A DNA stretch of 32,571 bases. Source: PVC group bacterium (lineage in GTDB: Bacteria > Auribacterota > Erginobacteria > Erginobacterales > Erginobacteraceae). Where the stretch lies: contig JAZDIV010000141.1 of assembly GCA_043804695.1 (NCBI GenBank), positions 1 through 32,571 of the forward strand, written 5' to 3'. Made by a program: the position numbers. Shown piece by piece: positions 21,001 to 24,000 of the stretch. The stretch's first letter is position 1, and the number at the start of each line of letters is the position of its first letter.

Positions 21001-24000
21001 ACCACGGATTATGTTTTTCTCCGGGATGAGACTGTCTGGCACACGGGGGTCTTGTCCGTGGGCGGCGATCACGTCACCAATGATATCAGCCTGGGGATGA
21101 AGCTTCTCCTCCGCCAGGCCGAGGAACTGAAAAAGAAATACGGTTCCGCCCTTCACGATCGGGTGAAAGATGACGCCGGTCTCTTCCTGCCGGAGGCCCT
21201 GGTCCGGTCCGTTGACGGCCTTTCCCGCAGGAAGCTCTGCCAGATCATCGAGCTGCGGCTGGTTGAGCTTTTCCGGTTGATCCGCCGGGATCTGGAAAAA
21301 GCAGGTCATTTTCAGTCCATCGGTTCGGGTCTGGTGCTGACCGGGGGGAGTGCCCTGCTGAAGAATATCGCCGACCTGGCCGAGCGGGAAACCGGTTTGC
21401 CGGTCAGGATCGGTACCCCGGCCGGCGTCTCGGGCCTGCGGGAAGTGATCGACAGCCCGGTCTATTCCACCGCCGTCGGGCTGATCAAATACGGCTTCCG
21501 GCCGGAGCGTCCCCGGCCGGCCGGGGACGCCTCTCCGGTGAAGTTCATCGGCGGATTGAAACGCTGGCTGGGACGGTATTTTTAATCTACTGCGTTGGAA
21601 TTTCAATAATTATTAGCCACCAAGACACAAAGACACCAAGAAAAAAAAGGGTAAAATATTCACCTTATTCGATTTTCCTTAGTGCCTTGGTGTCTTGATG
21701 GCGGAAAGGTGCGCCGAAGGCGCTAATTTATCATATTTTTCCTCAGGAAAAATTGGCGGAGAAGACACATGAGCAAGGGAAAAACTGAAAAGAAAATTTC
21801 CCTCTGGGGGGTCGGCCACTGGGGCGTGCGGGTGGCCGGGTCGATGCCGGATGAGTATCGTCGCCGGCTGAAAATCGTGGCGGTCGATTCGGATGTCCAG
21901 TCCCTGATCTGTTCGCCGGTCGCTGACAAGCTAACCCTCGGATGGGAGGAAGCCGCCGGGCGGTCCGCCGGCGGTGATGGCGGCAAGGGCGAAGAAGCAT
22001 TCCGGGAGAGTGCGTCGGCCATCAAGGAGAAACTGGCTGATTGCCGGGTGGCCCTGATCGTCGGCGGACTGGGAGGGGGAACGGGGAGCAGCCTGATCCC
22101 GGCGCTCTGCGGCACCGCGCGCGGTTTGAAGATTCTGACCCTGGCCCTGGTGACGCGCCCGTTTGCCTTTGAGGGGAAAAAGAAGAACCTGCTCTTCCAG
22201 CGGGCGCGGGAGGGGATTGAAAAAAGCGGGGCGGGCCTGGCCTGTTTTTCCCTGGATCGCCTGGTCGGCAAGGCTGAAGACGATACCCCTCACGACGAGG
22301 TTTTCCAACGCTGCGACCGGATATTGCAGGAAGCGGTCGAGTGCGTGATCGACTGCCTGTCGCCATCCCCCGGGTCGGGATGCGACGGCGCCGCGCTGGA
22401 AAATATTTTGACCGCGCCCGGAGAAACCGTGATGGGCGCGTATGAGACGGCGAAGCCGGAGAATCTGGTGGCGGCGGCGAAGGGCGCGTTCTCGGCGCTT
22501 TCTCTCCGACCCGCCGAACTGGGCCGGGCGCGGGGATTCTTGATTCAGATTGAGGCTGCCGGGCCGATTCCCTTCCGCCATGTCGAGCAGGCGGTCGGAG
22601 CGGTCTCCGGGCGGCTGGCCGAGGACGCGGACCTCCTCTACGCCGTCACCCGAAAAAAGGAAGCGGGGGACAAGATCATCGTCCGCATCATCGCCTTCGG
22701 GATTCCGGAGAGGGGAGGGGAGAAGATCGCGTCCGCGATCCCGGTCACCATGACGACCGACGTCCGCCCGGCTGTTCAGACGGAGATCGACTTCAAGAAG
22801 CTGACCCGGGGGGTGTTTGCCGACACCGGCCCCACGCTTCTCGACGGGGAGGACCTGGACATCCCGACATTCGTCAGGAAAGGGGTCGAGCTGGAATAAT
22901 TTCCTATTTCGGAATGTCAATAATCGGGAAATCCGATTATTGACATTCCGAAATAGGAGAAAAAGCAACTAAAGTAAAAAAATATTAGCTCTGGCTTTAT
23001 TATAGTAAGGGCTTACCGTTACGGACTGATCAGTTGGACGTGAACTGATCCTATGGTTGTTATCAATCAATTTTATATTCTAAAAAATGAAATTTTTCTA
23101 AATTAGCGCCGGAGGCGCTAATTTATGATTTTTTTCATCAGGATCGCCAAGTTACTGCTGGGGCTCTTCCTCATCCCCGCCTGCGTGTCGGCCACGGTGG
23201 TCTTCGGCCGGGAGATCTTCCCGTCCCTGAAGACCGAGATCTGGTTCTTCGCCGGGCTCTTCAGTTACCTGCTGCTGCTGGCCGTTTTCCAGCAGCCGAT
23301 CCGGACCTATATTTTCGGGCACGAACTGACCCACGTTCTCTGGGTCTGGCTCTTCGGCGGACGGGTCAAGGGCTTCCGGGCGGCGGCAACGGGCGGGGAA
23401 GTCCGCACGTCCAAATCGAATTTTCTCATCTTTCTGGCCCCGTATTTTTTCCCCCTCTACAGCGCGCTGGCCATCGCCGGCTACGGTCTCCTGACCGTTT
23501 TTTTCCAGCTGCCGCCGGTCGCGATGCGGATTCTCAGTTACCTGCTTGGTTTTACCTGGGCGTTTCACTTCACCTTGACCCTGTACGTGCTCATTCAGGG
23601 ACAGCCGGATGTTTGGGCCGCCGGCCGGATTTTTTCCTTCCCTTTTATATATCTCGTGAATGTGGTGGTCCTGGCATCGCTGATTATCTTCGTCACGCCC
23701 CGTCTCTCCTCCGGGACATACTTCTCCCGCCTCTGGGAAAAAGCGTGTCTCGACTACCGGTATCTCTGGACGGCCGGCCCCGGGATCTGCGAGGAGAACT
23801 ACCGCGCCTGCCGGGATAAAGTAGCCGCCCTCGTTGCCGGAAGGTGAGCAAAAGCGCCTTCCCGGTTGCCGTCTTTGAACAGTCCCCCCGAAGAGCGGAA
23901 TATCTCTCCTTCCGGGCGCCCGCCGGCCGGGGATACCGGGCAGAAGGGGTGCCGGGCGGGAGGAGAATGCCCGGTGAAGTAAAGTCTTGAAATTTTCCCG

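Follow-up and report, generated by a model that had tools for sequence, protein, structure and literature searches.

An order-wide FtsZ variant with an eroded GTPase site and an intact C-terminal tail in Erginobacterales

The order Erginobacterales possesses a single FtsZ in which the residues of the GTPase site have been extensively replaced, while the fold and the C-terminal tail are retained. This order-wide variant is real, and it is undescribed in the literature that we searched, from which subscription papers were mostly absent. Part of the findings may, reportedly, already be covered by Pilhofer et al. (2007, 2008) and Megrian et al. (2022). Similar erosion of FtsZ is common in related bacterial groups; the order is less singular than first proposed and belongs with the known fast-evolving FtsZ proteins of the PVC group. 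GTP hydrolysis and treadmilling are regarded as central to what FtsZ does, and how much division depends on them is debated. Nature offers a test case here: a sole FtsZ that is maintained by selection with both N207 and D212 (E. coli numbering) missing. The question can be addressed now, as erosion of this kind is often found in Verrucomicrobiia, some of which are in culture and for which transposon genetics exists; to our knowledge, no member of the order itself is in culture.

The ftsZ locus and its copy number

The window, i.e. the whole stretch of DNA analysed (32,571 nucleotides), carries the dcw cluster and the following features of interest.

4324..19452, forward strand: rest of the dcw cluster, with mraZ, mraW, probable ftsL, ftsI, murE, murF, mraY and murD, continued within the same interval by a LysM gene, ftsW, murG, murC and ddl (Pfam)
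19230..20285, forward strand: ftsQ, longest frame (Pfam matches to POTRA_1 and FtsQ_DivIB_C)
20359..21585, forward strand: ftsA (TIGR01174, 384 bits against a cut-off of 176; alignment)
21769..22899, forward strand: ftsZ orthologue, 376 aa, GTPase site eroded, fold and tail intact (Pfam Tubulin, TIGR00065, structure model)
23125..23847, forward strand: M50B-like membrane protein carrying an HExxH motif, immediately 3' of ftsZ (adjoins ftsZ in 14 of 14 order genomes)

The cluster runs from mraZ through ddl and ends with ftsQ, ftsA and ftsZ. The genome-wide survey's note had described a sole ftsZ in this place, preceded by ftsQ and ftsA within an intact dcw cluster, and this description is upheld, with murB of the window genome lying on a different contig. 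The probable ftsL was assigned from its position and a weak match (E 0.087), and for ftsQ an ATG at 19449 is a likelier start than that of the longest frame at 19230.

A search of the window genome (88% complete) at E<=10 gave one tubulin/FtsZ match, and a six-frame search with a broad profile gave a single FtsZ match (2.9e-95), the next match standing at 0.077. As had been stated previously, there is one such match in each of the 14 order genomes (75-97% complete), all of which have an open ftsZ frame and no broken copy. A family model that finds canonical FtsZ elsewhere at 1e-100 or better detected no second ftsZ in any of the 14, and an FtsZ-like paralogue of the Tubulin_2 type (PF13809) was likewise absent from all of them. 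It could be argued, given that every genome is incomplete, that a canonical ftsZ lies unassembled elsewhere and that the gene in the dcw cluster represents a secondary paralogue; we consider this very improbable, since all eight genomes of at least 90% completeness show a single match and no second copy occurs in the 14. Identity to the window FtsZ falls from 70 to 39% in the 11 nearest order genomes, in line with the range of 39-70% given earlier for the closest members, and then to 33 and 25%. A relative with 56% identity is found in a named record, that of Ca. Erginobacter occultus, and NCBI places the genus Erginobacter in Erginobacterales, Auribacterota, PVC group.

The window protein exceeds the cut-off of Pfam Tubulin (63 bits vs 33, E 4.8e-17) and remains below that of FtsZ_C. 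With TIGR00065 it scores 136 bits against a curated cut-off of 295, which was passed by none of 13 order matches. An AlphaFold2 model built from a 40-row alignment (pLDDT 83) has the two-domain FtsZ fold, and the Foldseek matches listed for it are all FtsZ, the best of them with target-normalised TM values of 0.84-0.89. A homodimer prediction with GTP scored 0.00 in both of two runs, a result that carries no weight either way. By fold and position, the window ORF is shown to be the order's inherited ftsZ orthologue.

The M50B-like gene was considered as a compensating partner and ruled out: of 79 genomes from the phylum, 51 have it, and in family f17 it adjoins a canonical ftsZ. It is an ancestral neighbour of ftsZ, not specific to the eroded form.

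The GTPase site, the tail and the selection acting on ftsZ

Four segments of the window FtsZ are referred to below (E. coli numbering).

21808..21831, forward strand: T1 loop and start of H1, GVGHWGVR, with G20 replaced by H, G21 by W and N24 by R (alignment)
22063..22092, forward strand: T4 signature region, GGLGGGTGSS (alignment)
22378..22398, forward strand: end of the T7 loop and start of H8, GCDGAAL, with N207 replaced by G, D209 kept and D212 replaced by A (gap-free alignment with wild-type S. aureus FtsZ)
22777..22884, forward strand: conserved C-terminal tail of about 36 aa, with the predicted FtsA-binding peptide LDIPTFVRK at its end (order alignment)

The motifs GVGHWG, GCDGAAL and LDIPTFVRK, on which the earlier proposal was built, are indeed present. 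That proposal spoke of a lost T7 catalytic loop, which is correct for the motif and not for the loop itself: NxDxxD is absent from all 14 order genomes and from all 35 distinct proteins of the clade (14 genome proteins and 29 database matches, duplicates removed), while the gap-free alignment and the retained D209 reveal a loop that was substituted and not deleted. N207 is found in none of the 35 proteins, D209 in 24 and D212 in one, which has neither N207 nor D209. The window FtsZ is one of those that keep D209, as is the case in 8 of the 14 order genomes; the remaining 11 of the 35 proteins have S, N, A, T, G or V at this position, and position 212 varies freely, with seven different residues in the clade.

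Decay on the nucleotide side had also been reported, and it proved wider than claimed, with G21, N24 and N165 kept in none of the 35 proteins and N43 and T108 in one each. G21 is replaced throughout (35/35) by W, Q, F or L, and the window genome is the sole keeper of T108 among the 14. In the window FtsZ, GGGTGSS and GVGHWGVR stand in place of the full GGGTG(T/S)G signature and of a T1 glycine run with N24. Other positions are retained, i.e. D45 and F182 (35/35), Q47 (34/35), R or K at 142 (33/35) and E138 (32/35); D stands at 186 in 32/35, and N43 is replaced by D in 34/35. We scored 18 site residues, a list drawn partly from PMC8936486: the order clade keeps 3-11 of them vs 17-18 in canonical families of the phylum. 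In family f3, one member of which lacks the T3 loop, the counts are 3 and 7.

Conservation of T7 is 0.54 in the order vs 0.85 in canonical families. The corresponding values for the two faces of the subunit serve as a pointer only, because the two sets are unmatched in depth: the lower (T7-side) face stands at 0.58 vs 0.59 for the domain background in the order, hence without any excess, and at 0.75 vs 0.60 in canonical families, and the upper face at 0.70 in the order vs 0.66 in canonical families.

The tail is the best-kept part of the protein. Of the 32 columns that are invariant in the order alignment it contributes 15, its majority conservation is 0.91 over the last 11 aligned positions, and the pentapeptide DIPTF of the predicted FtsA-binding peptide is invariant in all 14 genomes; even in f3 the tail is intact. 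A role of FtsZ tails in FtsA binding is described in the available part of PMC1845146. FtsA itself is encoded in all 14 genomes, and that of the window, which is over the curated cut-off, keeps the ATP motifs and the C-terminal amphipathic helix. It also keeps the equivalents of R300 and E303, which we take to be the FtsZ-docking arginine and glutamate, and so do 13 aligned FtsA proteins of the order.

FtsA and the late divisome (FtsQ, FtsB, FtsW and FtsI) are retained: FtsB occurs in 14 of 14 genomes, and ftsW and ftsI were seen in seven and six, respectively, i.e. wherever the sequence retrieved extended to them. The window genome, at its completeness of 88%, yielded neither FtsK nor RodZ; in other order genomes FtsK was detected in both of two tested and RodZ in one of two. 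Canonical MreB is present in all 14 genomes, ZapA and MinC were found in none of the 14, and SepF in none of five tested. The absence of ZapA and MinC was rejected as a correlate of the erosion, as both are also missing in families with canonical FtsZ; the MreB pattern is common to such families too.

For six f1 and f2 pairs, the pairwise dN/dS values of ftsZ (Nei-Gojobori, own script) are 0.16, 0.21, 0.23, 0.26, 0.32 and 0.34, comparable to those of the mur genes and inside their range; for the f3 pair the value is 0.71, and there FtsA (0.49) and FtsQ (0.66) are likewise high. A pseudogene is ruled out by these values in the six pairs and by the open frames; the order ftsZ is under purifying selection, though relaxed. 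With the species tree of 29 genomes fixed, the rate of the FtsZ core relative to the ribosomal one is 5.3x on the order stem, 1.7x in f2, 2.6x in f1 and 8.1x in f3, and 0.7-1.0x in the six other crown pairs, while FtsA reached 1.4x on the order stem. The earlier description of a conserved state is thus apt for f1 and f2 as far as dN/dS is concerned, but does not agree with a core rate of 2.6-8x ribosomal.

FtsZ erosion and loss elsewhere in the PVC group

An accelerated ftsZ accompanied by a less affected ftsA, as seen on the order stem, is a feature of divergent PVC FtsZ. In the accessible parts of the respective papers, ftsZ evolution is described as accelerated in Methylacidiphilum (M. infernorum) and Prosthecobacter with ftsA unaffected (PMC2474590), verrucomicrobial FtsZ is counted among the most divergent (PMC9871819), and the FtsZ of V. 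spinosum is said to diverge at conserved positions (PMC1845146) and its gene to be essential (PMC12283558). Our literature search, with subscription papers mostly outside it, returned no paper on FtsZ of Auribacterota or its loss there. FtsZ does not occur in the available main text of PMC9324843 and PMC12057145, and T7 loss is not treated in that of PMC5147048, PMC3160578, PMC3232192, PMC9324843 and PMC12057145.

The distinctness of the order had been judged against 17 FtsZ proteins from outside it, 16 of which were canonical, and this control turned out to be unrepresentative. Among 57 outside genomes with an FtsZ match we aligned 49 (the eight omitted belong to f17 and f18; for G075, which has two copies, one was excluded), and only 26 of them keep N207, an acidic residue at 209 and D212. 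The other 23 FtsZ proteins lack N207 or D212, the changes being D212H in families f9 and f10 (10 genomes), D212E in f22 (seven genomes) and N207K in f23 (six genomes).

A similar picture emerges beyond the phylum. From a sample of 68 loci, 18 were dropped (other taxa, vague titles, duplicates and fragments), with two more lacking a frame; all three T7 residues occur in 7 of 50 loci titled Verrucomicrobiota, Kiritimatiellia or Lentisphaeria. Of 151 genomes drawn evenly from Verrucomicrobiia, the class of a Chthoniobacterales record, 150 gave one FtsZ match each, with 31 over the cut-off. Eighty of the 150 proteins were fetched non-randomly (20 high, 20 middle and 40 low scorers); in this set, where low scorers are over-represented, 13 have the full T7 motif and 22 none of its three residues, and 32 keep at most 11 of the 18 site residues, with a minimum of four. 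An ftsA match was obtained for 19 of the 20 lowest-scoring loci. None of 107 relatives of one Verrucomicrobiales-type protein carries the full T7 motif, and most of these keep 14-15 of 15 nucleotide-side residues. Equal or deeper erosion therefore occurs in Verrucomicrobiia that retain the gene, and the order, whose FtsZ is one of the more eroded of those scored, exemplifies a trend that recurs in the PVC group and is no unique intermediate. In the FtsZ gene tree the order occupies its own long branch (support 0.998), which joins long verrucomicrobial branches with supports of 0.84 and 0.0, consistent with long-branch attraction.

The phylum also holds a family, f11, without ftsA and ftsZ but with ftsQ, ftsW, mur genes, mreB, rodZ and ftsK. 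In its four genomes (81, 97, 95 and 94% complete) neither the family model nor a phylum profile detected ftsZ, and no ftsA match was over the cut-off. Where the contig is continuous, which is so in three of them, murCB-ddl-ftsQ closes the dcw cluster and unrelated genes follow after gaps of 72, 31 and 384 bases; FtsW-family and mur genes and mreB were found in all four genomes, and ftsK and rodZ in both of two tested. Two species trees were built from 22 ribosomal proteins, with Planctomycetota and Chlamydiota outside them. Their deep branching differs, but f11 is the sister of f12, which has canonical FtsZ, in both (support 1.0 and 100), and its placement as sister of the order was rejected (p-AU 0.008, 21 rows). 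Since f11 is not sister to the order, a "stage toward loss" can be spoken of as an analogy only. The proposal that the order stands midway between canonical FtsZ and the FtsZ-less state of Planctomycetota and Chlamydiota is not borne out, given the position of f11 beside a canonical family and the erosion in Verrucomicrobiia that keep ftsZ. The order FtsZ is not a demonstrated step toward planctomycete or chlamydial loss, and both ftsZ and ftsA, absent in FtsZ-less PVC division, are present in 14 of 14 order genomes.

Possible functions and comparison with known systems

The active site of FtsZ forms between the GTP pocket of one subunit and the T7 loop of the next (PMC4603965, accessible part). 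According to the available portion of PMC8936486, N208 of S. aureus FtsZ binds K+, D210 and D213 hold the catalytic water, D209 (E. coli numbering) is the key catalytic residue, the changes N208L, D210N and D213N suppress assembly, and mutations of this kind abolish the function of E. coli FtsZ when assayed by complementation. In the accessible part of bioRxiv 10.1101/077610, E. coli D212G has 14% activity and no treadmilling, and strains with chromosomal D212A or D212G make septa that are often incomplete or asymmetric. Because N208 and D213 place K+ and the catalytic water, N208L and D213N suppress assembly and D212G retains 14% activity, the order FtsZ may fairly be predicted from its sequence to be GTPase-dead, as the survey's note had it.

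We give a little better than even chances to the view that the protein is a GTPase-dead or nearly dead scaffold, which would still serve division by docking FtsA via its tail. Without N207 and D212 the subunit interface would bind no K+ and place no catalytic water, and treadmilling would therefore not occur; head-to-tail filaments, if any, would be static or weak. The tail would tether FtsZ to FtsA at the membrane, and FtsA together with FtsQLB and FtsWI would build the septum through their own processive synthesis. Cells of the order thus probably divide with a static FtsZ scaffold. Chances are about even that GTP or GDP is still bound in f1, f2 and f4, and binding is unlikely in f3. In favour of a scaffold we count the loss of N207 and D212, the lowered conservation of T7 and of the lower face, the open frames, purifying selection, the kept tail and FtsA docking residues, the divisome and the lack of a paralogue, as well as the septa of E. 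coli D212A and D212G strains and the essential, divergent ftsZ of V. spinosum, both as described in the parts of the papers cited above. Against it stand the core rates from 2.6x (f1) to 8.1x (f3) ribosomal and the dN/dS of 0.71 in f3. The double change at N207 and D212 could, moreover, leave FtsZ useless for division, because N208L and D213N suppress assembly in S. aureus and such mutants inactivate E. coli FtsZ (PMC8936486, available portion).

Slow GTP turnover would be possible because D209 (24/35), D45 (35), Q47 (34) and R/K142 (33) are kept. A site rebuilt on the order stem, in which D209 together with N43D, N24R and K167R supports slow hydrolysis and filament turnover, would explain the burst of change on that stem (5.3x ribosomal), an upper face as conserved as the canonical one and the near-fixation of D45, Q47, E138, F182, D186 and N43D; we nevertheless regard such a rewired enzyme as rather improbable, with D209 replaced in 11 of 35 proteins, position 212 free among seven residues, N165 retained in none, T108 in one, and G21 replaced in all. 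It is also unlikely that FtsZ is a relict on its way out, a minor partner of FtsA in cells dividing in a Chlamydia-like, MreB-based manner, with f3 furthest along this path. The ubiquity of MreB (14/14), the lack of ZapA and MinC (0/14 each) and SepF (0/5 tested), the poor site scores and missing T3 loop in f3, and the loss of ftsA and ftsZ in f11 with the rest of the dcw cluster kept would all suit a relict, but the MreB, MinC and ZapA patterns are shared with canonical-FtsZ families, f11 is not sister to the order, ftsZ is broken in none of the 14 genomes and under purifying selection in f1 and f2, and the tail is intact even in f3. A bolder extension of the scaffold, which we hold to be doubtful, is that FtsZ has turned from a nucleotide-driven filament into an adaptor that needs no nucleotide and whose tail organises FtsA, the latter being the division polymer, along a recurring PVC gradient leading to clean loss. 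If so, this gradient would comprise (i) canonical FtsZ, (ii) single T7 changes, (iii) full erosion (the order and parts of Verrucomicrobiia) and (iv) loss of ftsA and ftsZ (f11), and cells would shed the dynamics of FtsZ before shedding its gene.

With canonical FtsZ (S. aureus 3vo8, B. subtilis 2vxy and E. coli) the order protein shares the fold, the dcw position after ftsQ-ftsA, the C-terminal peptide, D45, Q47, E138, F182 and the T4 glycine backbone; it differs at N207, D212, N24, N165, G21 and, mostly, T108 and N43, and the window FtsZ stays at 136 bits against the TIGR00065 cut-off of 295. Like FtsZ of Verrucomicrobiota (Prosthecobacter, Methylacidiphilum and V. spinosum) it is sole and divergent and has the same long tail, but it belongs to another phylum, forms its own long branch and has its own set of replacements; the published verrucomicrobial proteins were compared through descriptions of their divergence, which in the accessible texts come without a residue-level account of T7 loss. 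The E. coli D212A and D212G mutants of bioRxiv 10.1101/077610 (accessible part), which lack treadmilling and form septa, also have D212 lost in the only chromosomal copy, whereas in the order the change is natural and fixed order-wide, and N207 and several nucleotide contacts are missing as well. The FtsZ-less Chlamydiota and Planctomycetota resemble the order in belonging to the PVC group and in the presence of dcw genes and MreB (PMC12283558, available part). The order differs from them by keeping ftsZ, ftsA and ftsB, and it is family f11 of the same phylum that matches their state without ftsZ and ftsA.

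Altered FtsZ outside and inside the order

All ten genomes of the Auribacterota families f9 and f10 yielded one FtsZ each, in which histidine stands in place of D212, the last acidic residue of the T7 motif (NLDFAH), while the rest of the protein is canonical and dN/dS is low (0.11-0.18). These proteins represent a clean natural test case for a one-residue change. A further family, f22, encodes FtsZ in which T5 is altered and the substitutions D212E and N43D occur, and its FtsA is likewise strongly divergent (148-175 bits); ftsZ and ftsA are eroding jointly in f22.

Erosion is also observed in several Verrucomicrobiia, whose ftsA-adjoining FtsZ have only 4-12 of the 18 scored site residues left. 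Several of these loci sit on megabase contigs. In five of the proteins neither could the T7 loop be aligned nor the tail be recognised. Within Erginobacterales, the most eroded FtsZ are that of genome G003 (family f3), in which the T3 loop has been removed by a 22-residue deletion, and the proteins P0029, P0126 and P0130; T4 reads AELGGAMAAQ, and the tail is intact despite the erosion of the site.

Loci with altered FtsZ
L020, L024-L027, L030, L031, L033, L035, L036: FtsZ D212H, f9 and f10
L057-L063: FtsZ D212E/N43D, f22
L225-L235: eroded FtsZ beside ftsA, Verrucomicrobiia (G145, G163, G193, G151, G175 and others)
L056:1495-2562: ftsZ of G003

A separate observation concerns FtsA of family f2 (genomes G001 and G002; loci L095 and L093), in which, according to the alignment, the first phosphate-binding motif has its acidic residue replaced by alanine, and the ATPase of this protein may therefore be impaired as well.

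Absence of ftsZ and ftsA from family f11

Neither ftsZ (family model and phylum profile) nor ftsA (curated cut-off) was found in any of the four f11 genomes, which retain ftsQ, ftsW, a murC-murB fusion, ddl and mreB. Within continuous contigs, ftsQ is the last gene of the dcw cluster. In species trees the sister of f11 is f12, a family whose FtsZ is canonical, and f11 is apparently an FtsZ-less lineage not yet described.

Ends of the f11 dcw cluster
L078:9535-14871: G037
L080:7601-14356: G039
L081:1335-6346: G038

Genome G075 carries a second, high-scoring FtsZ (L013:1462-2508), whose tail differs from that of the phylum and which resembles archaeal FtsZ; its contig is possibly a contaminant.

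Other genes in the window

Four further genes of the window deserve mention:
2619-3230: protein with coiled coil and zinc ribbon, resembling CT398/CdsZ, 5' of mraZ
13726-14160: LysM gene, flanked by murD and ftsW
23125-23847: membrane protein, M50B-like and bearing an HExxH motif, directly 3' of ftsZ
24069-24641: 190-aa ORF, two genes after ftsZ

The M50B-like gene immediately follows ftsZ in 14 of 14 order genomes, its product is better conserved than FtsZ, and it is likewise close to ftsZ in f6, f16 and f17; a search with the window's protein did not find it in f11. This protein, encoded beside dcw genes in PVC bacteria, is uncharacterised. The 190-aa ORF, retained at the same position in several order genomes, has no Pfam match at E<=5. 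Six other genomes of the order were covered by retrieved sequence at the site of the LysM gene, and all six keep it there; chlamydial nlpD has the same placement.
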